Part shown: piece by piece, positions 19,491 through 37,528 of the stretch
Layout of the letters: every line of letters begins with the position of its first letter
Position numbering within the stretch: the first letter of the stretch is position 1
Position numbers and translations under genes: made by a program
The notes under the pieces: model-generated
What the model saw: only the letters and a program-made list of their open reading frames with translations
Database searches by the model: none
Told to the model about the DNA's origin: nothing
Origin: a candidate division FCPU426 bacterium
GTDB taxonomy: Bacteria; Oederibacteriota; Muellerivitia; Muellerivitales; Muellerivitaceae
Assembly (NCBI GenBank): GCA_963719085.1
Contig: CAVRAL010000001.1
Coordinates: forward strand, 992,001-1,056,000
Length of the DNA stretch: 64,000 nt
Reading direction: 5' to 3'

Positions 19491-19497
19491 AAATCCC

Positions 19498-20340: not shown

Positions 20341-20371
20341 GGATTAAAATTCCTCTTAATACTGCGGGGTT

Positions 20372-20834: not shown

Positions 20835-20877
20835 AAAATAAAAACGCGGGAAAGCGTCCCTGTCCACTTCCCCGCGC
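20835..20877 (-). terminator. Intrinsic terminator between sbp and the HPr-like gene
   Basis: Minus strand CGCGGGGAAGTG-GACAGGGA-CGCTTTCCCGCG followed by TTTTTATTTT. Confidence 0.7.
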
Positions 20878-21020
20878 CAGGCCTTTAGCCCTTACAGCCA
20901 CCAGGCATAAGCAGCTGTCTCATGCCTTGAACAAAAACTCGTCTCTCAATCGACGGCGGGACAGGCCCTCCGTCAAACACTCAGGACTAACGCTCAATCC
21001 GATCTGGCATGAGACGCTTT
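20878..21020 (-). ncRNA. Unidentified structured RNA/attenuator candidate
   Basis: GTCTCATGCC/GGCATGAGAC long-range stem; apical GACGGAGGG-CCTGT-CCCGCCGTC hairpin; alternative GGCATGAG/CTTATGCC pairing. Confidence 0.4.
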
Positions 21021-21041
21021 GACTCCTATTACACTCCAGTC

Positions 21042-22067: not shown

Positions 22068-22141
22068 TTTTCTCTCCTTGAGAATGTTCGGCCAATTAGA
22101 TCCTTCCGGAAGCCCTCGGGGCTCCCGGAAGAAATCCCGAA

Positions 22142-23521: not shown

Positions 23522-23755
23522 AAACAAAAAATCCCGGGTCCCGCTGGCTTCAGCGGACTCGGGATTAGGAAAAATTCCATAATCACTAAGACCGCTTTAG
23601 CGCCCAGTTCGCCTTTGCAGGCACGGTCGGGGCAAGTTGGTGGCGGATACGGACAAAGTCCGCAACCGCCCCGGGTGTGGTCCCATTCTTTCCGGGTCCA
23701 CGGGTATTCCGTATCTTTTTGGGATTCGGAATAACGCCGGTTAAAGCCTCACCGT
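23522..23755 (-). ncRNA. SAM-II-like riboswitch unit plus terminator (third in porin/sbp leader; ~100-nt multi-hairpin insertion)
   Basis: ACGGT-GAG-GCTTTAA ... CCAAC-TTGC-CCCG-ACCGT-GCCT(GCAA)AGGC-GAACTGGGC-GCTAAAGCGG; then terminator AATCCCGAGTCCGCTG-AAGC-CAGCGGGACCCGGGATT-TTTTGTTT. Confidence 0.7.
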
Positions 23756-23790
23756 TTCATCGATTGTTCAGAGGGGATTTTTGTTGGATG

Positions 23791-23986
23791 AAAACAAAAA
23801 TCCCGAACCACTTGGCTTAGAGCGGTTCGGGATTCGGGAAATTCTCGAATTCTTCACCGCTTTAGCCCCCAGTTTTTTTCGACCCCAATGACGGGCCAAA
23901 AACGGTCGGGGCAAGTTGGTCAATCCTCTTTCAAGGACCGTTGGAAAAGCCTTGTTCAGACTTTTCGCCAATTAAAGCCACACCGC
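23791..23986 (-). ncRNA. SAM-II-like riboswitch unit plus terminator (second in porin/sbp leader; ~50-nt insertion)
   Basis: GCGGT-GTG-GCTTTAA ... CCAAC-TTGC-CCCG-ACCGT ... AACTGGGG-GCTAAAGCGG; terminator AATCCCGAACCGCT-CTAAGCCA-AGTGGTTCGGGATT-TTTGTTTT. Confidence 0.7.
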
Positions 23987-24012
23987 TTGAAGCGAATGAC
24001 AAATCCAGGGTT

Positions 24013-24145
24013 AAAACAAAAAACCCGGGCCGCTTTAAAAGCGGTCCGGGTTTAGGGATTTCTCTCTAAATCGTCATTTCCGCTTTAGCTCGCTGTTCGG
24101 CTCTTTCGAGCCACGCCGGAGCAAGTTGAAACTTAAAGCCCGCGC
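24013..24145 (-). ncRNA. SAM-II-like riboswitch unit plus terminator (first in porin/sbp leader)
   Basis: GCGCGG-GCTTTAAGTTTCAAC-TTGC-TCCGGCGT-GGCTC(GAAA)GAGCC-GAACAGCGA-GCTAAAGCGG; terminator AAACCCGGACCGCTTT-T-AAAGCGGCCCGGGTTT-TTTGTTTT. Confidence 0.78.
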
Positions 24146-24156
24146 TTGATGTTGGA

Positions 24157-24185
24157 AATATAGCTCGCCACCGATTTCCTGTCAA
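24157..24185 (-). promoter_or_regulatory. Sigma70-type promoter for porin-sbp-cys leader
   Basis: TTGACA-17 nt-TATATT with AT-rich upstream tract, about 10 nt before the first riboswitch-like unit. Confidence 0.8.
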
Positions 24186-24202
24186 CCGAAATTATTTTTT
24201 TA

Positions 24203-24370
24203 TTATCCACCTACCGTTAAATCAAATCGCTTCTTTTTCAATCGGTTCAGGTGTCCCTCAAGCAGCTTTCGAATCCTCGAAAGTTCTTTCACCCATCGAA
24301 GCAGTGTCTCGCGGGAGAAGCCGCGATCCGATTTTCTTCCCAGCCGTTTAAAATTTTTCCTTTTCGGCAT
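24203..24370 (-). CDS. Possible small basic protein (55 aa) downstream of the cysteine desulfurase
   Basis: GGAG RBS, ATG at 24370 (MPKRKNFKRLGRK...), double TAA stop; no recognised homology. Confidence 0.3.
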   Translation of the reverse strand: MPKRKNFKRLGRKSDRGFSRETLLRWVKELSRIRKLLEGHLNRLKKKRFDLTVGG

Positions 24371-24401
24371 CTGGCTTCTCCCGACATCCGTATCCAAAAA
24401 A

Positions 24402-26324
24402 TCACCGAGCCGACGGAACCCTTCCCCCCACCAACCGACAAAGAGCGGACTCCAAGGCGTCCAAATCCTCGAAGGTGTTATAAAAGGCCAACGAAGCCCG
24501 AACGGTTCCCTCCAGCCCAAAACGACGCAGGATTGGCTGGGCGCAATGGTGCCCTGACCTGACCGCGATCCCTTCCTTATCCAACGCCTGTCCAATCTCC
24601 TCGTTCTTAAACCCATCGATCACAAACGATAGCACCCCGGCCTTTTCCGCGGCGTTGCCAATAATCCGCAATCCCGGGATGGCCTTTAGCTTTTGAGTCC
24701 CATAAACCAGCAGTTCATGCTCATGACGGGCCACATTCTCCAGCCCGACCCGATCCAGATAATCGAGCGCCGCGCCCAAACCCACCGCGTCGGCGATATT
24801 GCCGGTCCCGGCCTCAAATCGTCCGGGAGCAGGCTGGTAAAGGGTCTTCTCGAAAGTCACATCGGCGATCATGTTTCCCCCTCCCTGCCAGGGCTGGAAG
24901 GAATTTAAAAGAGCTTCCTTGCCGTGCAAAACCCCGATTCCCGTCGGCCCAAAAACCTTGTGACCCGAAAAAACATAAAAATCACTATCCAGCTCCGCCA
25001 CATTCACCCGGAGATGGGAAACCGCCTGGGCCCCATCCACCAATATTTTCGCACCATGGCGGTGGGCGATTTCAATCAACTGCTTCACCGGCGTCAACGT
25101 TCCCAAGGCGTTGGAAACTTGCGTCACCGAAACCAACTTCGTCTTGTCCGTTAAAAGTTTCTCGTACTCGTCGAGTAGGACCTGTCCCGAATCATCCACA
25201 GGAATGACCCGCAGTTTCGCGCCCTTGGCGGAGGCGAGATGCTGCCATGGAACGATATTGGCGTGGTGTTCGAGCCAGCTGACGATAATCTCGTCGCCCG
25301 CCCCGATGTTCTGCTCTCCCCAGGCCTTGGCCACCAGATTGATGGCCTCGGTGGCGCCCCGAACGAAAACAATTTCTTTCGCCGAAGAAGCCCCCAAAAA
25401 TCGCCGCGCTTTTTCTCGGGCCCCCTCGTAAGCGTCCGTAGCCCGGGCGGCCAGGGTATGGGCGGCGCGGTGAACGTTGGAATTCTCGTTGGCGTAAAAA
25501 TAATCCAACCGGTCAATGACGGTTTGGGGTTTTTGCGTGGTGGCCGCGTTGTCCAACCAAACCAAGGGCTTCCCGTTGATCTTCTGCCGCAGGATGGGAA
25601 AATCTTTTTTATACCAGGCCGCGTCAAAGACCGGACGCGGACCGCCCGAACTCAGGGGAGCCACCACTGGCGTAAAAGCATAAGGATCCGCCAAGACGGC
25701 CCCCGGTTCATTTCCGCCCTCCAAAAGAACCGATCCCGGCACGCCGCTCGTTCCCGCCGAAAAAATTTCAGAGGATGGCTGGGTCGACGCGGGGACGCTG
25801 TTTATCTGATCGGACACTTTGGATGGCGCCTCAGCCGGGGACTTCGCTTTTGGATTTTCCTCAAGTTTCAAATCCTCGGGAAAAACCGCCGGAAATGAAA
25901 AAGCCCTGCCATCCGTTCCGATCGGCAGCGCGGAACCGGAAAAAGGGTTCACCGTTTCCGAATGGGAACTGGGGGCGGAAAAAAAAGCCGACAACCCTAA
26001 ACCCGCCGGAATCCCGGCCAAAACCCCCGAGTCCAAGGGTTCGGTCAACAGTCCGGCCGGCGATGAAATCGGCGTGAAGGGCTGGAACGAGGCCAAACTG
26101 CCGGTGGGTCCTCCCGGAACCGGTGAGGGCGCCGCGATGGCCGGTGAAGGGCTTGAAACCACCGAGGGCAACGGCGGCTGCCCCGACAAAACAGAGCCCG
26201 CGGACGGCGTCGCCGGATGTCCCGGAACGGCCCTGAAAAACTCGTTGGCCAACTCGGTCAACAAGGCCGGATCCGGAGCCAAGGTCCCCCAAGAGGATTC
26301 AGGATTGGGGTTACTTGTAGTCAT
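24402..26324 (-). CDS. SufS-type (class II) cysteine desulfurase with ~230-aa disordered N-terminus: family 2A encapsulin cargo
   Basis: WLDNAATTQKP, VHRAAH, FSGHK (PLP Lys) and RSGHHCA motifs; P/S/G/A-rich N-terminal extension with LTELANEFF motif; ATG overlaps the end of the encapsulin gene. Confidence 0.93.
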   Translation of the reverse strand: MTTSNPNPESSWGTLAPDPALLTELANEFFRAVPGHPATPSAGSVLSGQPPLPSVVSSPSPAIAAPSPVPGGPTGSLASFQPFTPISSPAGLLTEPLDSGVLAGIPAGLGLSAFFSAPSSHSETVNPFSGSALPIGTDGRAFSFPAVFPEDLKLEENPKAKSPAEAPSKVSDQINSVPASTQPSSEIFSAGTSGVPGSVLLEGGNEPGAVLADPYAFTPVVAPLSSGGPRPVFDAAWYKKDFPILRQKINGKPLVWLDNAATTQKPQTVIDRLDYFYANENSNVHRAAHTLAARATDAYEGAREKARRFLGASSAKEIVFVRGATEAINLVAKAWGEQNIGAGDEIIVSWLEHHANIVPWQHLASAKGAKLRVIPVDDSGQVLLDEYEKLLTDKTKLVSVTQVSNALGTLTPVKQLIEIAHRHGAKILVDGAQAVSHLRVNVAELDSDFYVFSGHKVFGPTGIGVLHGKEALLNSFQPWQGGGNMIADVTFEKTLYQPAPGRFEAGTGNIADAVGLGAALDYLDRVGLENVARHEHELLVYGTQKLKAIPGLRIIGNAAEKAGVLSFVIDGFKNEEIGQALDKEGIAVRSGHHCAQPILRRFGLEGTVRASLAFYNTFEDLDALESALCRLVGGRVPSAR

Positions 26325-27234
26325 AGTATTGCGCCACATCGACGTCCTCGAGCACCGCCACCGCGTCATCGGTCAAAACAGCCAAGGAGCAGTAGAGGGA
26401 AATCAAATAAGACGCGATCGCTTTGCTGTCGATGCCCATGAACCGCACGGACAAACTGGGGCTGACTTCCCCCGGCAGTCCGGGCTGAAAAAGACCGATG
26501 ACCCCCTGTTTTTTCTCCCCGGTTCGGATGAGGAGAATATTCGTCTTGTTCTTTTCGTCGATCTTGACCTTATCGCTCGACACGATCGGGATTCCGCGCC
26601 AAGTCAAAAAGGGCGATCCAAACAAAGTCGTCGTCGGAGGCGGAACACCCCGGCGGGTGCATTCCCGCCCAAAGGCCGCCACGGCTTTGGGGTGGGCCAA
26701 AAAGAAAGAAGGCTCTTTCCAGACCTTCGTGATCAATTCGTCTAAATCGTCAGGCGTTGGGCGGCCCTGGCGGGTCTTGATCTTTTGCGAATCCAAGGCC
26801 GAATGGATCAGGCCGTATTCCTTGTTGTTGATCAACTCGCCTTCCTGGCGTTCCTTAACCCGTTCGATCAAAAGCCGCAATTGCTCCTGTATCTGGTCGA
26901 TCGGCTTGCTGTAAAGGTCGGAAACGCGGGTCTGCACATGCAGGACCGAGGTCACCGCGTTCAACCATAATTCTTTCGGGAACTCGTCGTAATTGACGAA
27001 GGTCTGGGGCAAATCGGCGTCTCCCCGCGGGCTGCATTCCACATCCGGTCCGTTGCTTTTATCTTTTACTTTATTCAGCCGGAAAATCCCCGATTCCACC
27101 GGCACCCATTGAAGAAATGGCACCAGCCACCGCGGCGTGATCCCCTCCCATTGGGCGTGTGTCTTCGTGACATTCGCCAACTGCGTGGCCGCGTTTTCTC
27201 CCAGCGTTCTGCGCACTTCTATTGATTCCGCCAT
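26311..27234 (-). CDS. Family 2A encapsulin shell protein (SrpI/major membrane protein I-like)
   Basis: AATQLANVTKT..QW..ITPRWL, LPQTFVNY, QLRLLIERVKERQE.EL, PTPDDLDELI.KVWKEP and ECTRRGVPPP motifs; 307 aa; upstream of a cysteine desulfurase. Confidence 0.93.
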   Translation of the reverse strand: MAESIEVRRTLGENAATQLANVTKTHAQWEGITPRWLVPFLQWVPVESGIFRLNKVKDKSNGPDVECSPRGDADLPQTFVNYDEFPKELWLNAVTSVLHVQTRVSDLYSKPIDQIQEQLRLLIERVKERQEGELINNKEYGLIHSALDSQKIKTRQGRPTPDDLDELITKVWKEPSFFLAHPKAVAAFGRECTRRGVPPPTTTLFGSPFLTWRGIPIVSSDKVKIDEKNKTNILLIRTGEKKQGVIGLFQPGLPGEVSPSLSVRFMGIDSKAIASYLISLYCSLAVLTDDAVAVLEDVDVAQYYDYK

Positions 27235-27290
27235 GACCGCCTCCCTGAATGAAATAGTTCGTCCACTACCGGCTCAACGTTTCATAAGAC

Positions 27291-27551
27291 TCAAAAACCG
27301 CTCCGACCGGCGCTTGGAAGATGGGTCGTGGTTTTAGCCCTGTTGACGGACCAATCCAATTCCGACTTCCCGGCCTTCCTGAAGCCATTCCTGAAATAGG
27401 CCCGCCAAACAATCCCCAGGCTTCCCAAAAACAGAATGGGACCGCTTTTAAAGCTCGAGGCCAAAAACCAAAGGGTCAGTCGCTTGGAAGCGACCAAGTC
27501 CCGCTCAATTTCCCGCCTCCACAAAATCAATTGCTTCGTTTCTGAATTCAT
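27291..27551 (-). CDS. Possible small hypothetical protein (86 aa) between riboswitch leader and encapsulin
   Basis: GGAGG RBS before ATG at 27551 (MNSETKQLILWRREIE...); one hydrophobic stretch; no recognised homology. Confidence 0.4.
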   Translation of the reverse strand: MNSETKQLILWRREIERDLVASKRLTLWFLASSFKSGPILFLGSLGIVWRAYFRNGFRKAGKSELDWSVNRAKTTTHLPSAGRSGF

Positions 27552-27572
27552 CTTTTCCTCCCGCGGCGGGAT

Positions 27573-27709
27573 AAAAAAAAATCCCAAACCGCCTGATACT
27601 CGCGGTTTGGGATTAGGGGAAAAACCCGATAATCTTCTTTCCGCTTTAGCGCCCTGTTGACCCCTCGCGGGGCACGGCCGGGGCAATTAGGTCAACAAAG
27701 CCTCGCCGG
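27573..27709 (-). ncRNA. SAM-II-like riboswitch unit plus terminator (second in encapsulin leader)
   Basis: CCGGC-GAG-GCTTTGTTGACCTAA-TTGC-CCCG-GCCG-TGCCCC(GCGA)GGGGTC-AACAGGGC-GCTAAAGCGG; terminator AATCCCAAACCGC...GCGGTTTGGGATT-TTTTTTT. Confidence 0.72.
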
Positions 27710-27767
27710 TATCCCGATTCTTGTGAAATCGGGAAAAAAGCATTGAATTTAAGGGTTTTTTGCCCAT

Positions 27768-27898
27768 AAACAAAAAACCCGGGCCGCTTTAAAAGCGGTC
27801 CGGGTTTAGGGATTTCTCTCTAACACGATCTTCGCCGCTTTAGCTCGCTGTTCGACCCGAAGGTCACGCCGGAGCAAGTTGGAACTTAAAGCCCGCGT
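27768..27898 (-). ncRNA. SAM-II-like riboswitch unit plus terminator (first in encapsulin leader)
   Basis: ACGCGG-GCTTTAAGTTCCAAC-TTGC-TCCGGCGT-GACC(TTCG)GGTC-GAACAGCGA-GCTAAAGCGG; same terminator as the unit at 24013-24145. Confidence 0.78.
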
Positions 27899-27911
27899 TT
27901 GAATCTTTTAA

Positions 27912-27939
27912 ATCCTACCACTCCCTTTCGGCATGTCAA
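27912..27939 (-). promoter_or_regulatory. Sigma70-type promoter for the encapsulin leader
   Basis: TTGACA-16 nt-TAGGAT with extended -10 TG, just upstream of the first unit. Confidence 0.7.
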
Positions 27940-28121
27940 CCGGAATTTTATTTTTATTTGATAATCTCTCCCGGCGAAGACAAGATGCTTTTTTCCGCGG
28001 TCCATAGACAAACGCCATTCCAAAATAAAAAACCGAGACTCCTGTAAATACAATGAAGTCCCGGTTTTCCAATTGCCTCGGCCATAGTTATTCGACGGAG
28101 GCCTATAGAATTTTAACCTGA

Positions 28122-29522
28122 TTAAAACAGCCAAAACCTTTTGTGACTGGAAGCCTTCAGCTTGTTCGAGTCCAATTCTTCCACCGGATTTTCCGAATGG
28201 GGCGTCCCGGCGGGAACCCAGTCATAAGGAACAGGCTGGGCCCGATAAACCCAGTTCACAATGATCCCCTGCCCGCTTTGGTCCCAACCATCATGGGCTT
28301 GGTTAACGTAGGGGTTGACATATTCCCAGACGATCTCCCCAGTCGGAGTCACTTGGAAAAACCGTCCATCCCGTCCCTCGTCGATCAGCGTATTACCATT
28401 GGGAAGCCTGCGGGCGCTGCTGATGAAATGGCTCTGGAAAGACCAAATGGGCCGACCGGAGTTCTCGCCCGTGTACTGCCAAACGATCTGCTTGGTCACC
28501 GGATTAATTTCCAAAACCCGGGATCCGCCAATCAAAGAAACCGGCGGCCATCCCGCGCTGCCCTGGTTGTCGAACACCAACAGGTCACCCGCGCCCGGCA
28601 AGCCTTCGGGAATGATATGGGCGTCATGTTGGCCGGAGATCTGGTCCACGGGCCGCGGCACTTTGGATCCCTTAACCGGCGGATAATCCGGTCCTTGGCG
28701 CCAAACGACCTTGCCTGTGTGCCGATCGATGATCACGATGAAATTAGCGTTGCGGGAATCAAGAAGGATATTATCCGGATTGAAGCGCTTGTCTCCCGCG
28801 TCAAACCAATGGTTCGGACCCACTACGTTGAACTTATTAATGGTCAAGAAGCCGCTGCCTTTTTGCGGCGCGTTGTCCCCTTGGTGAATTTGTTTTTTCA
28901 GGTAGGCGATCCCCGCCGGTGAAATGCCAAACTCGCTTAAGTGGTCTCCCGCCACCCATTTCCAGACGATTTTACCGTCCGGCGTCACTTCATAAATGGC
29001 TTGGTCGGCGATGTCTTGGTCGCCCAATTCCTTGATTTTGTGGACCACGGTGACATCCAGCAGCGTATTGCCGTTGGGCAGTCGGTGCCAGTCATGGTTC
29101 TGGCGGGCCGCCCCGCCCGGCGCTTGTTCGCCCCACTCCCAAACGGTTTTTCCGTCCCAGTCCAATTCCCCAACGGTTTTATTGTGGAAAATCCCGCCCC
29201 AAGTATCTTTGCCGTCCGAAGAAAGTTGGACCAGCACATGACCCAGCTTTCCGCCGGTGATTTTGGGATCCAGCAATTCACTGGGAAAACCCCAATGGTT
29301 CCATCGGTGGACCTCATTTCCATCCAAGTCAATCAGATGGGTATTTCCATCCGGGGCCCCGAAGAGTACATAGCTGTTATAGGCTTTGGCCGGATCGTAG
29401 ATCGTGGTTCCCGTCAGGTAAACCCGGGGTGCCGCCGACAATTCCCCCGTTCCGATGGCGGTCAAAAGAACGGCCGCCGGCAATATCAGATTCTTTTTTG
29501 AAAAAAATTGACACAGTCTCAT
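28122..29522 (-). CDS. Arylsulfate sulfotransferase (ASST) family protein, paralog 3
   Basis: Signal peptide; NHDWHRLPNGNTL, DSRNAN, GQHDAH, LLVFDN and SSARRLPNGNTLIDEG motifs. Confidence 0.88.
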   Translation of the reverse strand: MRLCQFFSKKNLILPAAVLLTAIGTGELSAAPRVYLTGTTIYDPAKAYNSYVLFGAPDGNTHLIDLDGNEVHRWNHWGFPSELLDPKITGGKLGHVLVQLSSDGKDTWGGIFHNKTVGELDWDGKTVWEWGEQAPGGAARQNHDWHRLPNGNTLLDVTVVHKIKELGDQDIADQAIYEVTPDGKIVWKWVAGDHLSEFGISPAGIAYLKKQIHQGDNAPQKGSGFLTINKFNVVGPNHWFDAGDKRFNPDNILLDSRNANFIVIIDRHTGKVVWRQGPDYPPVKGSKVPRPVDQISGQHDAHIIPEGLPGAGDLLVFDNQGSAGWPPVSLIGGSRVLEINPVTKQIVWQYTGENSGRPIWSFQSHFISSARRLPNGNTLIDEGRDGRFFQVTPTGEIVWEYVNPYVNQAHDGWDQSGQGIIVNWVYRAQPVPYDWVPAGTPHSENPVEELDSNKLKASSHKRFWLF

Positions 29523-29545
29523 TTTCTTATCCTTTTCTTAAAATT

Positions 29546-30994
29546 TTATTTCTGTGCGGTCGGAGGTGGATTAAAAATCTCAGGCTCCGCCACCGGCTTT
29601 TCCGAATGGGGCGTTCCCGTCGGCACCCATTCGTACGGCACCGGGATAGCCCGGTAAACGTAATTACTGATCACCTGAGCGTTTCCCGTGGGCGCCCAAA
29701 CCTTGTCGCCGGGTTGGTTCACGTAGGGATTAACGTATTCCCAGACGATCTTGCCGGTTGGGGTGATCTGGAAGAATCTTCCGTCACTTCCCTCATCGAT
29801 AAAAGTATTGCCGTTGGGAAGACGCCTGGCATCGCTGACGAAATGACTGCGGAAGGTCCAAGCCGTGCGACCCGAATCCTCACCCGTGTATTGCCAAATG
29901 ATCTGTTTGGTCACCGGGTTGATTTCCAACACCCGGGAGCCGCCCAACAAGGAAACCGGGGGATAGCCCGCGCTTCCCTGGTTGTCAAATACCAAAAGAT
30001 TGCCGGCGCCCGGCAAGCCCTCGGGAATAATCTGGGCGTCATGCTGGCCCGAGATTTGATCCACCGGACGGGGCAATTGGCTCTGCGGATTGTCCACGAA
30101 TTGGCTGGTCACCTTCACTTTGACGCGGGGAAAATCCGGACCCAGGCGCCAAACGACCTTCCCCGTTTTTTTGTCGATGATGATGATGAAGTTGGCGTTG
30201 CGGGAATCCGTGATGATGTTGTCCGGATTAAACCGCTGGTCACCTTCGTCAAACCAATGGTTGGGCCCTATGGGTTTCATGTTGTTGAAATGAAGATACT
30301 CGACATTCTTGCCCCGCCCCACGACCTCACGCAGATATTGCAGGTCGCTCGGGGTAAAACCGAACTCGGCCAAATGGTCCCCTGCGGTCCAAGTCCAGGC
30401 GATTTTCCCATCGGGCGTGACTTCATAAAAGACTTGGTCATGCACCGGCGCCTTTACCAATCCCTTTACCGGATGGGTGACATTCGAGAGGATCAGGGTA
30501 TTGCCGTTGGGCAGGCGCGCCCAATCATGGTGCTGGTCCGCGGCCCCGCCGGGGGCATTCTGGCCCCATTCCCAAACGGTTTTGCCGTCCCAATCCAGCT
30601 CACCGAATATCTGGTTGTTGAAAAAGCCCCGTTCCCGTCCCGGCGCGTTCTTGAGTTGTAGCAGAACATGCCCCAACTGTCCGCCCGCCAGCTTCGGGTC
30701 GAGCAACCCCGCCGGGAAACCCACATGAGGCCAGGAATGGACTTCATTCCCGTCCAAATCGATCAAGTGGGTTTTTCCGTCCGGCGCGGAAAAAATCACG
30801 TAGCTATTGTAGGCCTGGGTCGGATCGTAAATCGTGGTGCCCGTCTCAAAAATCCGGGGATTGGCCGAAAGAGTCGAAATCCCCGCCAACCCAATTCCCG
30901 CCGCCAAGGACAAAATCTTTAACGAACCCCAAAAAATTCCTGGCGGGGACGCGATGGGTCCCCGCCATTTCGATAGTTTGTCGGATTTATTCAT
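29546..30994 (-). CDS. Arylsulfate sulfotransferase (ASST) family protein, paralog 2
   Basis: QHHDWARLPNGNTL, YLHFNN, DSRNAN, GQHDAQ and LLVFDN motifs. Confidence 0.9.
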   Translation of the reverse strand: MNKSDKLSKWRGPIASPPGIFWGSLKILSLAAGIGLAGISTLSANPRIFETGTTIYDPTQAYNSYVIFSAPDGKTHLIDLDGNEVHSWPHVGFPAGLLDPKLAGGQLGHVLLQLKNAPGRERGFFNNQIFGELDWDGKTVWEWGQNAPGGAADQHHDWARLPNGNTLILSNVTHPVKGLVKAPVHDQVFYEVTPDGKIAWTWTAGDHLAEFGFTPSDLQYLREVVGRGKNVEYLHFNNMKPIGPNHWFDEGDQRFNPDNIITDSRNANFIIIIDKKTGKVVWRLGPDFPRVKVKVTSQFVDNPQSQLPRPVDQISGQHDAQIIPEGLPGAGNLLVFDNQGSAGYPPVSLLGGSRVLEINPVTKQIIWQYTGEDSGRTAWTFRSHFVSDARRLPNGNTFIDEGSDGRFFQITPTGKIVWEYVNPYVNQPGDKVWAPTGNAQVISNYVYRAIPVPYEWVPTGTPHSEKPVAEPEIFNPPPTAQK

Positions 30995-32369
30995 GGCTCA
31001 CCGCGTTCAATCCAAAGACATCCGGCTTGACGACGGCCTTTTCCGAATGGGGTGTTCCAACCGGAACCCATTCATAGGGCACCGGGATGGCCCGGTAAAC
31101 GTCATTGCTAATGATCGCGCTGCCGGTGGCGGAAAGCCTATTGACGTAGGGACTCACATATTCCCAAACAATCTCGCCCGTCGGCGTCACCTGGAAAAAC
31201 CGTCCATTCATACCTTCATCAATGAAGGTATTTCCATTGGGAAGACGCCTGGCATCGCTGATGAAATGGCTGCGGAAAGTCCAGGCCGGACGGCCCGAAT
31301 TTTCGGCCGTATATTGCCAAACGATTTCTTTTTTCACCGGGTCGATTTCCAGCACCCGGGAACCCGGGCCCGTCGCGACGGGCGGGTAACCGGCGCTTCC
31401 CTGGTTATCGAACACCAGCAAATCGCCCGCGCCTTGCAGTCCCTCCGGAATAATCTGGGCGTCATGCTGGCCCGAGATTTGGTCCACGGGCCGGGGCAAT
31501 TCGTCCTTCGGACTTACGGACAAACCCGCGGCTATTTTCAAGCGGGGATAATCTGGGCCTAATCCCCAAACCACCTTCCCGGATGGCTTGTCGATAATGA
31601 CGATGAAATTGGCGTTACGTGAATCCACGATGATGTTGTCAGGATTGAAACGTTGGTCTCCCGCCTCAAACCAATGGTTTTTTCCAACGACCTTCATGTC
31701 GTTGATGTGCAGGTAATCCACGTTCTTGCCGCGCGCGACGACCCCGCGCAGGTAGGCCAAGTCCGATGGGCTGAAACCAAACTCACTTAAATGATCTCCC
31801 GCCACCCAGGTCCAGGCGATCTTGCCGCCCGGCGTCACTTCGTAAATGACATCGTCCAAGACGTCCTGATCGGACAAAGCCTTAACCTTGTGGGTGAGGT
31901 GGGACAAAACCAGGGTGTCGCCATTGGGCAGACGGCCCCAGTCATGGTGCTGTTTGGCGGCCCCGCCGGGCGCCTCCGTTCCCCATTGCCAAACGGTTTT
32001 GCCGTCCCAGTCCAGCTCCCCAAGCACCTTGTTGTTGAAAAAACCCGTTTCAATCCCCGGGTCATTCTCGAGTTGGACGATCACATGGCCCGGTTGTCCG
32101 CCTGTTAAAGCGGGATCAAGCAACCCGGCCGGAAAAGCCACATGAGCCCAGGAATGGACCTCATGGCCGTCCAAATCGATTAAATGGGTCTTTCCATCCA
32201 ACGCCGAAAAAATCACATAGCTGTTATAGGCTTTGGCCGGATCGTAAATCGTCGTTCCCGTCTCAAAAACCGAAGGCGAGGCCAATCCCATACCAATCCC
32301 GGCCGCCCATAACAACGCCGGCATGGCCGAAATCTTCAATCTTTTTGAAAAAATTTTTTTCCAATCCAT
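30987..32369 (-). CDS. Arylsulfate sulfotransferase (ASST) family protein, paralog 1
   Basis: AAGGA RBS before ATG 32369; QHHDWGRLPNG, YLHIND, DSRNAN and GQHDAQ motifs. Confidence 0.9.
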   Translation of the reverse strand: MDWKKIFSKRLKISAMPALLWAAGIGMGLASPSVFETGTTIYDPAKAYNSYVIFSALDGKTHLIDLDGHEVHSWAHVAFPAGLLDPALTGGQPGHVIVQLENDPGIETGFFNNKVLGELDWDGKTVWQWGTEAPGGAAKQHHDWGRLPNGDTLVLSHLTHKVKALSDQDVLDDVIYEVTPGGKIAWTWVAGDHLSEFGFSPSDLAYLRGVVARGKNVDYLHINDMKVVGKNHWFEAGDQRFNPDNIIVDSRNANFIVIIDKPSGKVVWGLGPDYPRLKIAAGLSVSPKDELPRPVDQISGQHDAQIIPEGLQGAGDLLVFDNQGSAGYPPVATGPGSRVLEIDPVKKEIVWQYTAENSGRPAWTFRSHFISDARRLPNGNTFIDEGMNGRFFQVTPTGEIVWEYVSPYVNRLSATGSAIISNDVYRAIPVPYEWVPVGTPHSEKAVVKPDVFGLNAVSHE

Positions 32370-32482
32370 CGTCTTGTCCTTTTTAAGGAGAAGTATTTCC
32401 AGTGGACTGGTCAATTTTTCTCTTAGATTTCCAGGGAACCTTCGTCCCCCTTTATCGCCGTTGTCGGCGATCCGCTTCATTT

Positions 32483-32659
32483 TCAGCCGTTCTCGTCCTT
32501 CACCAACCGGATCCGCTCAATCTTGTCGATCTGCGTGATCCGGGAATTATGGACGGTGATTTGCACCGTCCCATAACGCATCCCCTTGATCGCCGCCAAT
32601 ATTTTTTGGACCAGTTGAACTTGTTCTTCTTCCGTCAAAAGCTCGTTCTTCGCCGACAT
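32483..32659 (-). CDS. YezD/DUF2292 (OscA-like) small sulfur-starvation protein, 58 aa, absent from the ORF track
   Basis: Translated by hand: MSAKNELLTEEEQVQLVQKILAAIKGMRYGTVQITVHNSRITQIDKIERIRLVKDENG; matches the RYGxVxIxVHxxxxxQIxxxExxR pattern; GGGGGA RBS. Confidence 0.85.
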   Translation of the reverse strand: MSAKNELLTEEEQVQLVQKILAAIKGMRYGTVQITVHNSRITQIDKIERIRLVKDENG

Positions 32660-32692
32660 AAAATCCCCCCCTTTCCACCGATAAACCTCAAC

Positions 32693-35068
32693 TTACAGAA
32701 TGTAAAAGCCCGCGCCCAGGTTGAATGTGGTGCCCACGTTCTCGTACACCGAGTAGTATTTCAGGTTGAAGATGTTATCCACCCCGGCCGAAATATTGCC
32801 GCCGTTAAACTTGTATTCAGCCTTGAAATTAAAGGTCGTGAAGGGATCAAAGCTCCCCTGCACGCCGTTGACCGTATCAGAGTTGTTCGAGGTGGTGTAA
32901 CGCTTGGACTGATAGGTTCCTGAGAGGGAAACCAACCAATCTTGCGGCGTGAAATCCACCCCAAAGTTCACCTCATCCGCCGGGATATTCGGCACCTGGT
33001 GCCCGACCGAAGTCGGCTGGGCCGCGTTAACCGTGATCTTGTCATCCAAATGGGTGTAGTTCCCGAAGACATCAAAATCCGCATTCACCTTTTGTTTTAA
33101 TTCCGTCTCAATGCCGTTGATTTGCGCTTGGCCCGCGTTGAAGTACTGCGTGATGGTGGTCACGCCCGCAGTCGAGGTGTCGGCGTAAATCAAATTGGTG
33201 AGCGCGTTGTTGAAATAAGTGGCCGAAACGGTTGTTTGGGTCGGCAGCTCATATTCCCCGCCGATTTCCCACGCCGTATCCAGTTCCGGCTTGAGGTTGG
33301 GATTGGGAATAGTCTCGGTGTTGGTGCCTGACGAGAAGAGGTAAAGCTCGCCCGAGGTCGCGGGGTTAAAAGCCTGCCCCCAAGAAGCGCGCAAGCTGCC
33401 GTTTTGGTCCACTTTGTAAACCAAGCTGACCTTCGGGGTCACTTGGTCAAAGCTGACCGTGGGATAGGTCACTTCCGTCGACAGTAGTGTATTGTAAATT
33501 TTTCCGTCGGCGGAAATCCAATGGTCCCAACGGGCCCCCAAAAAGGCTGTCAAGGAGGGGAAAATTTTCCATTGGTCCTGCGCGAAAAGCGAGTCCGTGG
33601 TCTCGTTGTCCCCGTTGCCTTGGCTGGTATTCTCAACGAAATCGTTGATATCCGTCCAATTGGCGAAGGTGACGTTGTAGCTGGTGAAGGCCGCGTAGTC
33701 CCAATTGAACCCCACGATCACTTCATGGTTATCCAGCTTTTGATCGGCCTGGATGTTCGCGAATCCTTCCCAATCGGCCTCCATGTCCGTTCCCGTGCCG
33801 GTTCCGGAGAAAGGAGTCGTGGCCGCCGGAAGGGCCGACTCGGCGATATGCAAAGGTCCGGCCGTCCAAGCGAAACTGCCCGTCAGGTTTAAATCCGCGT
33901 TCTCTTTGCCCTTGTATTGCAGGTAGGACCCGAAGAAACCGTTCTTCCCCGGCGCCGTCAAGAACTGCGATTGATTAACGCTGATGTTTTGTCCCGTTCC
34001 CGCCAGGGACACCGAACCGTTCAACACCGTGGCCGGGGCGCCGGTCGTGGCGTCCTTCAGGTAAGAGGTCCCGATTTGTCCCGTCGGGTTGGTGTTCGGC
34101 TGGTCCCAATAGGAATAATTGAGAAGCAGCGTGAAGATCTGGTCCTTATCGGGCGTGAAGTACAACTTACCCGTATAGTTGTTATTCTCCTGAACCGTCC
34201 GGGCGATCTCCCCGATGTTATAAAGAACGGTGGTTCCGCTGTTGTTCGTCGTTTGATTAAAGCCAGTCACCACTTCGGTGGGGGTCAACCCGGTTTTAGC
34301 CGCGGCTTGGACGAACTGATGGTCCGTGTATCCATCGATTCCGGTATTTTGAAAGCCGAAATAATAGGCGAACAAATCGTTGGGCTTATTCTCGTAGCTG
34401 ATATTGGTGGTGCGCACATTGGCGCTGTTCCAATCCTCGCTGAAATTGAAGCTCTCACCCTCGGGTTCCTTGGTGATTACGTTAATGACCCCGCCCACCG
34501 CGTTTTTACCCCACAAGGCGGAAAAAGGCCCCCGGACCACTTCCACGTGGTCCACCAATTGGGAGGGAATCCGGTTCCAGAAAACCCTTTCGTTGCCCAA
34601 CTGATTCAGCTCAAAACCATCCAGCAAAGCGAGGTTCTTTTCATATCCGGGAATCCCCCGCAAAGAAACCGTGACACCCTGGCTGCCCTCACCACCCGAG
34701 CGGTCAACCTCGACCCCCGGTAAGCCGGTCAAGGCATCGTCAAAAAATCCGATATCCTTTTTGGCCAGATCGTCTTTGGTGATGACTGAAATAGCCGCCG
34801 GCGAGTCCAGAATTTTTAATTTACTTTTGGTCCCGGTGATCACAACGGCGTTCAAGTCGTAATTCGGAGCCGTGGTCCCGGAAGCCGGGGCCAAATTGGC
34901 GGCCACCGGAGTTTGCGCCGTGGCGGTCGTGACGTCCGCGTCAGGAGCCGCCGCGGCGTCACCTGCCCCCGTATCCGGATCCGGAGTAGGGGTTGATTCC
35001 GCCCCCACCCAGGACGAAAGTCCTAAAAATAAACCCGCGGTCAAAACGAATGAAAATAACTTAGACAT
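32693..35068 (-). CDS. TonB-dependent outer-membrane receptor
   Basis: Signal peptide (ATG 35068, GAGG RBS); TonB box AVVITGTK; plug motifs VSLRG and VEVVRGPFSALWGKNAVGGVINVITK; LKPE; aromatic C-terminal strand. Confidence 0.93.
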   Translation of the reverse strand: MSKLFSFVLTAGLFLGLSSWVGAESTPTPDPDTGAGDAAAAPDADVTTATAQTPVAANLAPASGTTAPNYDLNAVVITGTKSKLKILDSPAAISVITKDDLAKKDIGFFDDALTGLPGVEVDRSGGEGSQGVTVSLRGIPGYEKNLALLDGFELNQLGNERVFWNRIPSQLVDHVEVVRGPFSALWGKNAVGGVINVITKEPEGESFNFSEDWNSANVRTTNISYENKPNDLFAYYFGFQNTGIDGYTDHQFVQAAAKTGLTPTEVVTGFNQTTNNSGTTVLYNIGEIARTVQENNNYTGKLYFTPDKDQIFTLLLNYSYWDQPNTNPTGQIGTSYLKDATTGAPATVLNGSVSLAGTGQNISVNQSQFLTAPGKNGFFGSYLQYKGKENADLNLTGSFAWTAGPLHIAESALPAATTPFSGTGTGTDMEADWEGFANIQADQKLDNHEVIVGFNWDYAAFTSYNVTFANWTDINDFVENTSQGNGDNETTDSLFAQDQWKIFPSLTAFLGARWDHWISADGKIYNTLLSTEVTYPTVSFDQVTPKVSLVYKVDQNGSLRASWGQAFNPATSGELYLFSSGTNTETIPNPNLKPELDTAWEIGGEYELPTQTTVSATYFNNALTNLIYADTSTAGVTTITQYFNAGQAQINGIETELKQKVNADFDVFGNYTHLDDKITVNAAQPTSVGHQVPNIPADEVNFGVDFTPQDWLVSLSGTYQSKRYTTSNNSDTVNGVQGSFDPFTTFNFKAEYKFNGGNISAGVDNIFNLKYYSVYENVGTTFNLGAGFYIL

Positions 35069-35215
35069 TGCTAACCTCGCATCAATTTGATGAGCAACGC
35101 CAGTGGACTGGAAGTTACCGAATTTTTTCACTTCGTTACCGAGCGGAAGTCCGCGCCGTTTAAAATAACCACAAAACCAATGCCCCTTCTGCCAACCCGC
35201 CATAAGCTCCTTCGC

Positions 35216-35794
35216 TCAATTCAGCTGGAACAAAATCGGAAGCGTCACTTCACAGGCCACCGGCGCGCCGTTCGCGTCGCAAGCCGGGGTGAAAATGCCG
35301 GCCTTGACCTTTCGGATCGCGAATTCATTCAAAACCTCGTAAGTTCCCTTCAGCAGCCGAACCTCCTGAACCAGCCCCTGGGCGTCAATGTGGAGCAGAA
35401 GCACCACCCGGCCGTCGCTGCCCGACTGGCGGGCCACCGAGGGATAATCGTCCGGATCAATCAAATTCCCCACCCAACGGGGCTTGCGAGAGGTCTGCGA
35501 TTCGGGCACCCAAACCGTCTGCGATTGGACCGGTTCCAGATGTACTTTTTCCGGAACGACTTTCTCGGCGGCCTGGTGCCCTTTTTTCGGCAAGGTCCAT
35601 TTAAAAGGCGGCTGGGTCACAACCGGGTTCATTTCCAGGTCCGTGATGACGACCGAGCGATGCGCGAAAAACAACAGGTACAAGATCAAGAACAAAGCCG
35701 TGTGGACCAAAATGGAAAGGCTAGTTCCCGCCGCCAAGGGCTCTCCCCAGAACTGCGCGAAACCGGCTTTATTTGTCAGAGACAAGTGCGACAT
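35216..35794 (-). CDS. tonB: Energy transducer TonB
   Basis: TM segment SILVH; C-terminal YPSVARQ...GRVVLLLHID..G.V..V and FTPA motifs; follows exbD. Confidence 0.88.
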   Translation of the reverse strand: MSHLSLTNKAGFAQFWGEPLAAGTSLSILVHTALFLILYLLFFAHRSVVITDLEMNPVVTQPPFKWTLPKKGHQAAEKVVPEKVHLEPVQSQTVWVPESQTSRKPRWVGNLIDPDDYPSVARQSGSDGRVVLLLHIDAQGLVQEVRLLKGTYEVLNEFAIRKVKAGIFTPACDANGAPVACEVTLPILFQLN

Positions 35795-36170
35795 GGTCGA
35801 CCCCCGCTTGTTTAATCACATCTAAAGCCGACACCACCTGCTGGTAAGGCAATCTACTGTCCGCCGCCAGCGTGATTCGAACCCCCGGATTTTCCGCCAC
35901 CTCCTGGGCCAGCGCGGTCTTCAGTGCAGCCAAGTCCGTCTTGTCTTTTCTCAAGTAAACTTGGCCCTTGTCGTCGATGGAAACAGAAAGGGTCGGAGCC
36001 GCCGGACTGTCCCCCGTTTCGGTTTTCGGCAAATTGATCTTGAGGCTCGCCTCCGACACGAAAGTTCCCGCCACCATGAAAATAATCAAAAGTACCAGCA
36101 TGATGTCCACCATCGGGGTGACATTGATGCCGGTCACCGTGCCATCTTCTTCGATATAATTTGAGCTCAT
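35769..36170 (-). CDS. exbD: Biopolymer transporter ExbD
   Basis: INVTPMVDIMLVLLIIFMV and AD..LPYQ.VV..LD motifs. Confidence 0.93.
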   Translation of the reverse strand: MSSNYIEEDGTVTGINVTPMVDIMLVLLIIFMVAGTFVSEASLKINLPKTETGDSPAAPTLSVSIDDKGQVYLRKDKTDLAALKTALAQEVAENPGVRITLAADSRLPYQQVVSALDVIKQAGVDHVALVSDK

Positions 36171-36225
36171 GGTCCCCCTCTTTCTTCTTCACTTTTTTAA
36201 CGGCTTAACTCCCGGCTCAACTTCA

Positions 36226-36915
36226 TCAAGAAACGGCCGCCGGATGCCGTCCCTCCACTTTTTGCTGGCTCTTGATGGCGCGGCGCAAAAGTCCCTCACT
36301 CTCATCCCGGAGATAAACCTGAAGCAGATGGATCAGGCTTTGGGTATTCGCGATCTTTTTGCGCAAACTGGTTTGGAAAACGTTGTTGGCCACCACCGCC
36401 GGAATCGCCACGAAAATCCCGAAGGCTGTGGCGATGAGCGCCGAGGAAATGCCCGCCATCACCACCGAAACTCCGGAGTTGCCGCTGACCGCCAGGTCAT
36501 TGAAAGCCTTGATGATTCCCAGCACTGTCCCCAAAAGTCCGACAAAGGGGGCGTTGTTGCCCAGGGTTCCCAAGATGATGAGGTGTTTTTCCAACCGGTT
36601 TCGCTCAAGCACCAGGCGGGAAGTCATGGCCTCTTCCACCGAAGCGTAGCCCTTATGCAGATGGGTCAATCCCGCCAAGGCCACATGGGCTTCCACACCG
36701 GAAGCTTTTTTCACCGTTTCTTTCGCTCCGTTTAAATTCCCCTTTTCGAGGAAATCCGAAAGCTTGTCCAAAAGCTGGGAGAAATCCACCGCGCTGGCCT
36801 TAAATACCCGCCAACGCTCAAAAATCACACCCAAGGAAAGCACGCTGGCGGCCACCAGCGTCCACAAGGCCCAAACATCCCCGGCCAAAGCCAGTTTTTT
36901 GAATAGTTCCGTCAT
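36226..36915 (-). CDS. exbB: MotA/TolQ/ExbB proton channel
   Basis: LGTLGNNAPFVGLLGTVLGII and GISSALIATAFGIFVAIPA motifs; AGGAG RBS before ATG 36915. Confidence 0.92.
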   Translation of the reverse strand: MTELFKKLALAGDVWALWTLVAASVLSLGVIFERWRVFKASAVDFSQLLDKLSDFLEKGNLNGAKETVKKASGVEAHVALAGLTHLHKGYASVEEAMTSRLVLERNRLEKHLIILGTLGNNAPFVGLLGTVLGIIKAFNDLAVSGNSGVSVVMAGISSALIATAFGIFVAIPAVVANNVFQTSLRKKIANTQSLIHLLQVYLRDESEGLLRRAIKSQQKVEGRHPAAVS

Positions 36916-36957
36916 AAGTCCGCTCCTTTTAGGTCTTGCCCGAAAAAACCGGGCTGA

Positions 36958-37103
36958 CAACAAAAAACCCGAACCGCTTTCAAACGGTTCGGGTCATGAA
37001 ATAAATCATTGCCTTCAAACCGCTTTAGTTCCCGATTCGCCCAAGGGTTGAAACCTCAAACCTTGGAGCCGGCTGGGGGCAAGTTGGTACTTAAATCCCG
37101 CCG
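36958..37103 (-). ncRNA. SAM-II-like riboswitch unit plus terminator (third in exbB leader)
   Basis: CGGCGG-GATTT-AAGTACCAAC-TTGC-CCCCA-GCCG-[CCAAGG..CCTTGG hairpin]-GAATCGGGA-ACTAAAGCGG; terminator ACCCGAACCGTTT-G-AAAGCGGTTCGGGT-TTTTTG. Confidence 0.72.
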
Positions 37104-37117
37104 TAAAAATAATCCGT

Positions 37118-37258
37118 AAAAAAAAAATCCCAAAACCACTTCTTGTTGAAGCGGGTTGGGATTCCGGATCGTCCGATAATCTTGTTCCGCTTTAGCGCCC
37201 TGTTTATCCCCTCTCGGGGGATACGGCCGGGGCAAGTAGGTCAACAAAGCCTCGCCGG
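37118..37258 (-). ncRNA. SAM-II-like riboswitch unit plus terminator (second in exbB leader)
   Basis: CCGGC-GAG-GCTTTGTTGACCTAC-TTGC-CCCG-GCCG-TATCCCCC(GAGA)GGGGATA-AACAGGGC-GCTAAAGCGG; terminator AATCCCAACCCGCTTC-AACAA-GAAGTGGTTTTGGGATT plus T-run. Confidence 0.75.
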
Positions 37259-37355
37259 TGTTCCAATCCTCCCAAAATTCATCAGCCGGAGGTTGAAACC
37301 ACACCCGCTTCGATTCGGAGCGGGAAAAAGCTTAAATTTAAGGGTTTTTCGCCAT

Positions 37356-37486
37356 AAACAAAAAACCCGGGCCGCTTTAAAAGCGGTCCGGGTTTAGGGA
37401 TTACTCTCTAACTCGTTCGACACCGCTTTAGCTCACTGTTCGACCCGAAGGTCACGCCGGAGCAAGTTGGAACTTAAAGCCCGCGC
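37356..37486 (-). ncRNA. SAM-II-like riboswitch unit plus terminator (first in exbB leader)
   Basis: GCGCGG-GCTTTAAGTTCCAAC-TTGC-TCCGGCGT-GACC(TTCG)GGTC-GAACAGTGA-GCTAAAGCGG; terminator identical to those at ~24030 and ~27790. Confidence 0.78.
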
Positions 37487-37499
37487 TTGATGCTTTTGA

Positions 37500-37528
37500 A
37501 ATTTATTTCAATCGACGAAAAATGTCAA
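37500..37528 (-). promoter_or_regulatory. Sigma70-type promoter for the exbBD-tonB-receptor-ASST leader
   Basis: TTGACA-17 nt-TAAATT with AT-rich upstream tract. Confidence 0.75.

Follow-up and report, generated by a model that had tools for sequence, protein, structure and literature searches.

Stacked leader RNAs resembling riboswitches of the SAM-II and SAM-V classes, probable serial OFF switches ahead of three sulfur-acquisition operons in a candidate division FCPU426 bacterium

What is the function of eight similar RNA elements that stand one behind another ahead of three sulfur operons? The elements, here called units, lie on the minus strand of a 64-kb window, meaning the whole stretch of 64,000 nucleotides (nt) analysed from contig CAVRAL010000001.1 of a candidate division FCPU426 bacterium. 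They form three arrays and are named accordingly: 1a, 1b and 1c in array 1, 2a and 2b in array 2, and 3a, 3b and 3c in array 3. By analogy with published structures, we consider it probable, at about 0.7, that the units are a new structural variant of the SAM-II/SAM-V riboswitch superfamily which acts as serial transcriptional OFF switches, with S-adenosylmethionine (SAM) as the presumed ligand.

An earlier note on this DNA had described eight units as tandem arrays of three, two and three, and all of them were found in their places on the minus strand. Eight exact copies of the 9-mer CTAAAGCGG were found in the window, all of them on the minus strand and each closing one unit, while about 0.5 copies are expected by arithmetic on both strands (128 kb). 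With up to one mismatch allowed, 30 matches were found in the window, whereas shuffles had 15.3 on average. When a covariance model was seeded with the six short units (1b and 1c left out), it recovered exactly the eight unit sites in 64 kb, including the two unseeded units at an E-value of about 2e-7; the next best match in the window had an E-value of 0.12. The eight-unit observation is real and non-random. A reading of the units as repeats or mobile elements was rejected, since they are found only in sense leaders of sulfur genes.

Relatives were collected by scanning genome contigs with the pattern TTGCYCC-N(12-42)-AAYNG-NNNN-CTAAAGCGG, which returned 92 stretches. On these, the window-built covariance model gave 100 matches at E<=0.01 in 49 loci; the other 43 loci, spread over many phyla including archaea, look like chance matches to the pattern. 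After redundant loci (L043 and L090, within L042; L045, within L044) and weak ones (L081 and L007, 23-24 bits) were dropped, 85 units at E<=1e-4 were kept, in 44 loci from 33 assemblies. Fifteen assemblies were labelled Elusimicrobia or Elusimicrobiota, one Candidatus Obscuribacterium magneticum (Elusimicrobiota at NCBI), one Firestonebacteria, two Acidobacteria, four 'proteobacter*' and ten simply 'bacterium'. Fourteen of the 85 units lay outside the search pattern and were found by the model alone, and 13 of these still ended in CTAAAGCGG. The window DNA was at most 80.6% identical to any relative locus.

From 5' to 3', a unit consists of the 5' strand of helix P1 (4 nt), a third strand G(A)GG-N-UUUAA, a turn with a conserved CC, the P2 5' strand (A/C)UUGCYCC, the P1 3' strand, a variable P3 hairpin, the junction AAC and the P2 3' strand GG-N-GC-U-AAA with a bulged U, followed by the tail GCGG. 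Conservation was examined in alignment A2, whose 93 rows (8 window units and the 85 others) were fitted to the window-built model; the retrieval pattern had fixed the P2 5' side, the junction AA and the tail, so invariance there outside the window is partly by construction. Among the positions that the pattern did not impose, G10, G12, G13, U16 and U17 were each present in 83/83 full-length units, C32 in 93/93 and A34 in 92/93, and position 31 was C in 84 and U in 7 of 93. In the third-strand motif GG-N-UUU, U15 was found in 76/83 units, and N, which varies like the bulged C6 of SAM-V, was C in 65, A in 15 and U in 3. The bulged U and the AAA opposite UUG were seen in 8/8 window units and in all 93 rows (pattern-fixed outside the window), and the As after P3 were nearly as constant (A132 93/93, A133 92/93; again pattern-fixed outside the window).

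Compensatory changes were found at all four P1 pairs. Pair 6-55 was GC in 63 rows and CG in 4, pair 9-51 was CG in 69, UA in 13, UG in 3 and AU in 1, and pair 5-58 was CG in 51, AU in 7, UA in 4, UG in 2 and other in 29, the last mostly due to subtype-a rows whose P1 of 3-4 base pairs (bp) is misaligned by one column. P2 was paired in 87.9% of cells, and its sole variable pair, 40-139, was UA in 17, CG in 16 and other in 59. P1 and P2 together paired in 88.4% of cells compared with 84.1% in shuffles; 0/500 shuffles reached the observed paired fraction or covariation score, and shifting the 3' partner columns cut pairing to 26-73%. P3 had 89 distinct sequences in 93 units, of which 92 folded better than shuffles (z<-1; median minimum free energy (MFE) -9.0 kcal/mol), and RNAalifold found four basal P3 pairs, each with compensatory changes. 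In units 1b and 1c, 60-100 nt are inserted between third strand and P2; this two-hairpin insertion, the mark of a long-insert subtype, covaried in both hairpins across 7 other loci. The P1 variants and the alternating TTGC flank of the earlier note were borne out in the units (CGC/GCG, CGGC/GCCG and CGGT/ACCG; GCUC/GAGC versus GCCC/GGG.GC), and so was the expected covariation, as the family recurs in other genomes with compensatory changes in P1, P2 and P3. These results support an H-type pseudoknot with a variable hairpin. A Watson-Crick pseudoknot GGCUUUA/UAAAGC(C) was rejected: C14 changed to A or U in 18/83 units while G146 remained G in 92/93, and such variation without a matching change fits a third strand better. 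We infer that the GG-N-UUU strand forms a triplex.

Directly 5' of unit 3b, we also observed what looks like the relic of a 5' half of a long-insert-type unit. It combines a third strand similar to GGGUGUGGUUUCAA with a CCUCC/GGGAGG hairpin and AUUGGAAC, and it passes directly into unit 3b, a sign that units may have recombined in the past.

The architecture was compared with that of SAM-V as given in passages of PMC6061858. There, SAM-V has a 4-bp P1 and a third strand (G5-G11) in the P2 major groove, with C6 bulged and U8-U10 in contacts, followed by a turn of 3 nt. A18, U19, U20 and G21 belong to the P2 descending strand, which leads to the P1 descending strand and the P3 stem-loop, and A40-A42 lie in the P1 minor groove. 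In the P2 ascending strand the single bulge U47 pairs with the adenine of SAM, A48 and A49 take part in U:A.U triples, and A50, paired with A18, holds the amino-acid end. When SAM is bound, a further helix, P2a, forms between turn nt 14-15 and the sequence just 3' of P2. The same passages report one pseudoknot core and ligand pocket for SAM-II and SAM-V (superposition root mean square deviation 0.373 A). The Rfam SAM-V consensus blocks GGCAuUUGAACuGUAUUGUGC ... GCACUAAA.AAGGAG are the same as the blocks in the units.

Rfam 15 was scanned at gathering thresholds over the window and at E<=10 over array 3 (581 nt), array 1 (701 nt) and unit 2b (81 nt). The sole match in the window at gathering thresholds was a SAM-I riboswitch (83.6 bits), and the matches in the unit regions at E<=10 were terminator look-alikes only (NsiR1, sraL, ncr982, and microRNA and snoRNA models). 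One unit from another genome (L011:4407, about 4406-4504), with the Shine-Dalgarno tail CUAAAAAAGGAG, was alone in giving an Rfam SAM_V alignment, full length and in the expected register (13.8 bits, E=5.1), which is a weak link to SAM-V. Hence the SAM-II-like class proposed in the earlier note stood in its architecture, which agrees feature by feature, and did not stand as a match to any Rfam SAM model; the closest known class is SAM-V, which has the P3 hairpin.

A G+C-rich stem with a U tract was found 3' of 8/8 window units, in agreement with the terminator per unit claimed earlier. A stricter scan detected 1/3 of the array 1 terminators and missed the other two because of its loop and stem rules. 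Counted as a hairpin plus U tract within 130 nt of a unit, terminators were present in 78/93 units including all 8 of the window, and one further unit was truncated by a contig end. The 5' arm of terminator 1a, CCCGGACCGCUUU, is complementary to the tail AAAGCGG. Across the family, CCGC, the complement of the tail GCGG, occurred in the 5' arm plus two loop nt of 71/78 terminators, while control 4-mers occurred in 2-21 of 78 arms, except CCCG, the conserved stem start, in 51. Eighteen terminators had GUGG in the 3' arm and still CCGC in the 5' arm, suggesting selection on pairing with the tail. When transcripts that end short of the 3' arm were folded by MFE, the 5' arm paired with the tail and a few following bases, enclosing a small linker hairpin.

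By analogy with the published SAM-V model, the switch is likely to work as follows. On binding of the ligand, most likely SAM, the third strand would dock and the GG of the tail would pair with the CC of the turn as a putative P2a; the downstream terminator could then fold and transcription would stop (OFF). Without ligand, the free tail GCGG would pair with CCGC of the terminator 5' arm, and this antiterminator would permit read-through (ON). Fifteen units had no U tract; most of them precede a start codon, and six share a conserved hairpin relay whose final stretch is AAAAGGGG, close to the ATG; it resembles a translational platform hiding the ribosome-binding site. At several loci (Table 1) the last unit before porin genes is followed by a hairpin without U tract, GACCCCGAGCGG, AAAAGGGG and ATG. 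Translational occlusion of a Shine-Dalgarno sequence is not the mode of the window, where 8/8 units are of the terminator type, and a Shine-Dalgarno sequence directly in the tail was seen only in L011:4407.

Several results weigh against a SAM riboswitch. No Rfam 15 family, including SAM-II, SAM-V, SAM-II-long-loop, SAM/SAH and SAM-Chlorobi, matched the units scanned at E<=10, so no family model makes them members, and the SAM_V score of L011:4407 is far under the gathering score of 41 bits. The equivalent of SAM-V A18 (column 35) is C in 85/93 units and A in 8/93, and the turn is about 2 nt longer than that of SAM-V. RNAalifold on the model-fitted alignment gave no P1 and a consensus energy of about 0, with 29/93 cells unpaired at 5-58; the P2 pairs other than 40-139 hardly vary in an alignment whose P2 5' side the retrieval pattern fixed, and P2a (CC/GG) shows no compensatory change in A2. 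The antiterminator fold test was weakly specific (real tail 78/78, permuted G-rich tails 63-72/78); since permuted tails also pair with the C-rich arm, we relied on the conservation of CCGC instead. Finally, a genome that already has SAM-I does not obviously need a second SAM class.

Some of these points would suit an aptamer of the same fold for another ligand, such as S-adenosylhomocysteine (SAH), methylthioadenosine, adenosine phosphosulfate or its 3'-phosphorylated form (APS/PAPS), or a compound derived from cysteine or methionine, with SAM-I then serving one branch. They are the C in place of A18, whose partner A50 contacts the ligand in SAM-V, the lack of an Rfam SAM model match for the window units, and the separate SAM-I in the window. 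In addition, most of the controlled genes serve uptake of sulfate or organosulfur rather than SAM synthesis, and close SAM-aptamer variants that sense another ligand are described in the abstract of PMC10853860. We nevertheless regard another ligand as unlikely. In SAM-V, the adenine is held and the sulfonium faced by bases (passages of PMC6061858) that are invariant in the units, namely the bulged U, both U-A-U triple positions and AAA, and units with A and with C at the A18-like position stand in the same gene contexts. OFF logic on uptake genes does not suit SAH, and the control of metH and metX-metY fits a methionine/SAM signal better than a sulfate or cysteine signal. Should a SAM-II/V-type pocket retuned by the C nevertheless sense another sulfur-status metabolite, which we hold to be just as doubtful, the cell would read two signals. 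SAM-I would report SAM to the methionine branch, and the multi-unit arrays would respond to the new ligand and govern sulfur acquisition, storage in the encapsulin and stress proteins for low sulfur. In that case the units would define a new class of riboswitch ligand and be the first case of a sulfur-starvation regulon with a master regulator at the RNA level.

The lack of an Rfam match would also fit an attenuator that depends on a protein or is otherwise no riboswitch, in the manner of PyrR or TRAP leaders, whose likeness to SAM-V is convergent; a pocket in the RNA and a binding site for a protein are not told apart by high sequence conservation alone. Yet the units have all the architectural elements of SAM-V in the same sequence, bulged U and AA junction included, the covariation supports an RNA pseudoknot with a variable hairpin, and among the three genes that follow each array in the loci examined there was no conserved regulator gene. 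Such an attenuator is very unlikely. Returning to SAM as the probable ligand of the units, the SAM-I riboswitch of the window leads a thrC-like gene, an open reading frame (ORF) of 224 amino acids (aa) and cysK, which indicates that SAM is already a sulfur-status signal in this host. The genome would thus have two different SAM-type leader classes with separate regulons.

The three arrays of the window comprise 3, 2 and 3 complete units, each unit with a terminator (8/8), and a promoter-like site with TTGACA precedes only the first unit of each array; they are tandem riboswitch arrangements in this sense. When units were clustered into arrays at 450 nt, 59 arrays were obtained, of which 30 were singles, 24 doublets and 5 triplets, so that 29/59 had 2-3 units; because of contig ends, these counts are lower bounds. 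The triplets outside the window (L006, L034, L044) all stand ahead of porin-sbp operons. Within an array, the units did not arise by recent copying of one another. Subtype a, with U-A at the variable P2 pair, a 1-nt linker and a nearly identical terminator, headed 15/29 multi-unit arrays, stood further back in just one and occurred alone just once.

Two or three independent OFF switches in series would multiply their read-through probabilities, and we propose that sulfate uptake, organosulfur scavenging and the encapsulin are for this reason expressed only at really low SAM. Serial terminators predict a tighter shut-off, and a wider or steeper response if the affinities of the units differ. 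The steep response expected from stacking in the earlier note would be one outcome, with tighter shut-off predicted equally well. The strong terminator at each unit could alternatively mean that stacking mainly yields small RNAs (sRNAs), the terminated units being released as stable trans-acting molecules with cis control secondary, and an sRNA derived from SAM-II is described in the abstract of PMC9373788. However, the units stand in sense 5' leaders only, with a promoter-like site before the first unit only, and in several other genomes the last unit has a translational platform overlapping the ribosome-binding site. We consider the sRNA explanation extremely unlikely, and serial cis-acting OFF switches remain the preferred reading.

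The operon behind array 1 was inferred from gene order and shared strand. The operons of the three arrays are co-directional and contiguous, and the arrays serve one 22-kb gene island; the gene content is sulfur acquisition and storage, so the earlier label of sulfur-scavenging operons was right. In array 2, the genes for the shell protein SrpI and the cysteine desulfurase overlap slightly, and both products pass their NCBIfam cutoffs as a family 2A encapsulin system. SrpI of Synechococcus elongatus is upregulated on sulfate starvation according to passages of PMC8049743, whose reference list contains a title on plasmid genes whose transcription is controlled by the availability of sulfur and by CysR. 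The 86-aa ORF between the array 2 terminator and srpI had no Pfam match and no similarity to small ORFs behind units in other loci.

The regulon survey (Table 1) took in the first three genes behind each array; in it, the porins of L044 and L051 were recognised by similarity to the window porin. In L040, a cysK-cysE operon with a single unit at its head continues into srpI and a desulfurase gene (L040:3-4203 with L076:7929-10698); in one relative, encapsulin and riboswitch thus stay linked although the operon is laid out differently. No Pfam match at E<=1e-8 was found for three families of small proteins behind units. Most of their members have their own unit or array directly upstream, and L076:5088-5546 lies about 100 nt downstream of a single unit. 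They are candidate new sulfur-starvation proteins.

Several neighbouring genes were also observed. The last gene of the array 1 string encodes CysD and CysN as one fused 739-aa protein. A gene with an HPr-family domain (phosphocarrier of the phosphotransferase system, PTS) lies between sbp and cysT, and HPr-family genes recur downstream of riboswitch-led sulfate-uptake or DUF3034 genes in other loci; this protein is an unexpected conserved neighbour. Immediately upstream of array 3 lies a ThiF/MoeB-family adenylyltransferase gene, which may belong to sulfur-carrier chemistry, and beside it a gene for a protein with a FlgD-Ig-like C-terminal domain.

Table 1 Positions of units, signals and genes in the window, and genes or signals at relative loci in other assemblies (L numbers).
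Feature	Position	Strand	Remarks
Unit 1a aptamer	24080..24148	-	Subtype a (U-A at variable P2 pair); 79.1 bits, seed member
Unit 1b aptamer	23857..23989	-	Long-insert subtype, two-hairpin insertion in turn; 34.1 bits, outside seed
Unit 1c aptamer	23592..23758	-	Long-insert subtype, insertion ~100 nt; 34.2 bits, outside seed
Unit 2a aptamer	27835..27901	-	Subtype a; 81.6 bits, seed member
Unit 2b aptamer	27641..27712	-	Subtype b; 77.0 bits, seed member
Unit 3a aptamer	37423..37489	-	Subtype a; 81.2 bits, seed member
Unit 3b aptamer	37187..37261	-	Subtype b; 79.4 bits, seed member
Unit 3c aptamer	37020..37107	-	Subtype c (GGAUUU third strand, long P3); 66.3 bits, seed member
Terminator of 1a	24013..24050	-	Stem -18.0 kcal/mol, U tract
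Terminator of 1b	23791..23832	-	-20.4 kcal/mol
Terminator of 1c	23522..23564	-	-20.6 kcal/mol
Terminator of 2a	27768..27804	-	-18.0 kcal/mol
Terminator of 2b	27571..27612	-	-19.7 kcal/mol
Terminator of 3a	37356..37392	-	-18.0 kcal/mol
Terminator of 3b	37117..37161	-	-16.9 kcal/mol
Terminator of 3c	36959..36993	-	-17.9 kcal/mol
Promoter-like site, array 1	24157..24185	-	TTGACA-17-TATATT; 11/12 consensus matches, just 5' of 1a
Promoter-like site, array 2	27911..27939	-	TTGACA, TAGGAT after 17 nt; putative -10 read by eye
Promoter-like site, array 3	37500..37528	-	TTGACA; putative -10 hexamer read by eye
Relic-like half-unit	about 37330-37262	-	Directly 5' of unit 3b
Array 1 operon	14928..23455	-	Pfam, NCBIfam; further genes CysT, CysW, CysA
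Porin O/P-like	22142-23455	-	Array 1
Sulfate-binding Sbp	21042-22067	-	Array 1
HPr-like	20372-20836	-	Array 1
Fused CysD-CysN	14928-17147	-	Array 1
Array 2 operon	24402..27551	-	86-aa ORF, SrpI shell, desulfurase cargo
86-aa ORF	27291-27551	-	Array 2
Family 2A encapsulin shell SrpI	26311-27234	-	encap_f2a 511 bits, cutoff 380
Cysteine desulfurase cargo	24402-26369	-	f2_encap_cargo1 842 bits, cutoff 800
Array 3 operon	28122..36915	-	Pfam: ExbB, ExbD, TonB, receptor, arylsulfotransferases
TonB-dependent receptor	32693-35203	-	Array 3
Three arylsulfotransferase-family paralogues	30987-32480, 29546-30994, 28122-29522	-	Array 3; Pfam
ThiF/MoeB-family adenylyltransferase	37555-38283	-	Upstream of array 3
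Protein with FlgD-Ig-like domain	38286-39467	-	Upstream of array 3
SAM-I riboswitch	44859-44979	-	
thrC-like gene	43538-44809	-	Behind SAM-I
224-aa ORF	41978-42652	-	Behind SAM-I
cysK	41025-42023	-	Behind SAM-I
metY + metX	L024, L049, L072		
metY (homocysteine synthase)	L017, L052, L026, L041		
metH	L001		
cysK-cysE	L040		
ABC ATPase + cysC + cysH	L009		
Porin + sbp	L006, L011, L034, L044, L051, L054, L056, L058, L061, L066		10 loci; CysT/W-type permease genes within the three genes scanned in 5/10 (L011, L034, L051, L056, L058)
sbp + permease genes without porin	L016, L064		
Porin alone	L021		
NMT1-type binding proteins	L012, L063		
DsrE + class-V aminotransferase	L008		
1-Cys peroxiredoxin			8 loci, mostly behind long-insert subtype
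ExbBD-TonB-receptor	L042, L074, L076		
DUF3034			3 loci
Further small proteins			Several
Small family, ~115 aa	L042:5864-6211, L074:5362-5724, L044:5552-6031		FDIRGKV motif
Small family, ~150 aa	L042:5156-5635, L076:5088-5546, L074:5891-6439		Looks secreted; ends WSYLKGG
Small family	L015:1842-2210, L047:2784-3131		In two Acidobacteria-labelled assemblies only
HPr-family genes	L054:1953-2294, L044:1976-2341, L032:6636-6914		
Non-terminator platform	L006:3312-3420, L051:6171-6290, L054:4883-5000, L058:4910-5000, L077:1496-1611		After last unit

If confirmed, the units would be a third structural branch of the SAM-II/SAM-V superfamily. Because current Rfam models miss them, they go unnoticed when riboswitches are annotated in Elusimicrobiota and related uncultured lineages. 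One RNA sensor would control what appears to be a whole sulfur-starvation response, made up of sulfate uptake, TonB-dependent organosulfur scavenging, cysteine and methionine synthesis, 1-Cys peroxiredoxin and the SrpI encapsulin, and it would flag several small proteins as likely sulfur-starvation genes. Arrays of one, two and three units of distinct subtypes would also offer a natural system for the benefit of serial riboswitches, whether steepness, tightness or a wider sensing range.

Among known systems, SAM-V (RF01826; metY/bhmT of marine bacteria) shares with the units the H-type pseudoknot, the 4-bp P1, the U-rich third strand after P1, a P2 made of ..UUG.. and ..C-U(bulge)-AAA, the P3 between the P1 3' strand and conserved As, OFF logic and control of metY, and probably also the 2-bp P2a from the turn and the sequence 3' of P2. 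Unlike SAM-V, whose tail is a Shine-Dalgarno sequence controlled at translation through P2a in the passages cited above, the units have a tail GCGG that would feed an antiterminator or terminator, and one subtype has structured insertions of 60-100 nt in the turn. The units are also G+C-rich, occur in metagenome-assembled genomes labelled Elusimicrobiota and otherwise as listed above, and have a regulon centred on sulfur acquisition.

SAM-II (RF00521) resembles the units in that intrinsic terminators are common and tandem doublets are reported (passages of PMC9481103), and differs in that the units have no match to it at E<=10. The statement in the earlier note that SAM-II usually acts singly on translation is contradicted, as passages of PMC6061858 call the translational metX SAM-II rare and those of PMC9481103 report terminators and 44 doublets. 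A literature search found no published SAM-VII, SAM-VIII, SAM-II-like, SAM-V-like or SAM-II-variant class and no SAM-II in Elusimicrobia, the SAM-riboswitch matches for Elusimicrobia being unrelated by title. It gave nothing relevant by title or abstract on riboswitches with encapsulins, and only a cyanobacterial review on tandem terminator riboswitches in sulfur starvation. SAM-I (S-box) regulons are alike in that the end product SAM, the signal proposed here, shuts off methionine, cysteine and sulfur-assimilation genes through termination, but their four-way junction fold is unrelated and has no sequence similarity to the units.

Stacking has the closest parallel in tandem 'pseudo-cooperative' riboswitches (thiamin pyrophosphate (TPP), glycine singlets, c-di-GMP-I/II, SAM-I, molybdenum cofactor (Moco) and glutamine), which likewise place several complete riboswitches of one class, each with its own platform, in one leader. 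Passages of PMC9481103 list 44 SAM-II doublets, some with a terminator per unit, and 149 SAM-II/SAM-V pairs, and they name triplets of c-di-GMP-I/II, glycine, TPP, SAM-I (one), guanine, Moco, glutamine and Li+ riboswitches; its main-text passages contain no SAM-II triplet. Given these doublets and triplets, stacking as such is already known. In contrast to those systems, doublets and triplets are here the rule rather than the exception, with conserved subtypes in a preferred order; what is unusual is the frequency of stacking, the ordered subtypes and the presence of three arrays on one island.

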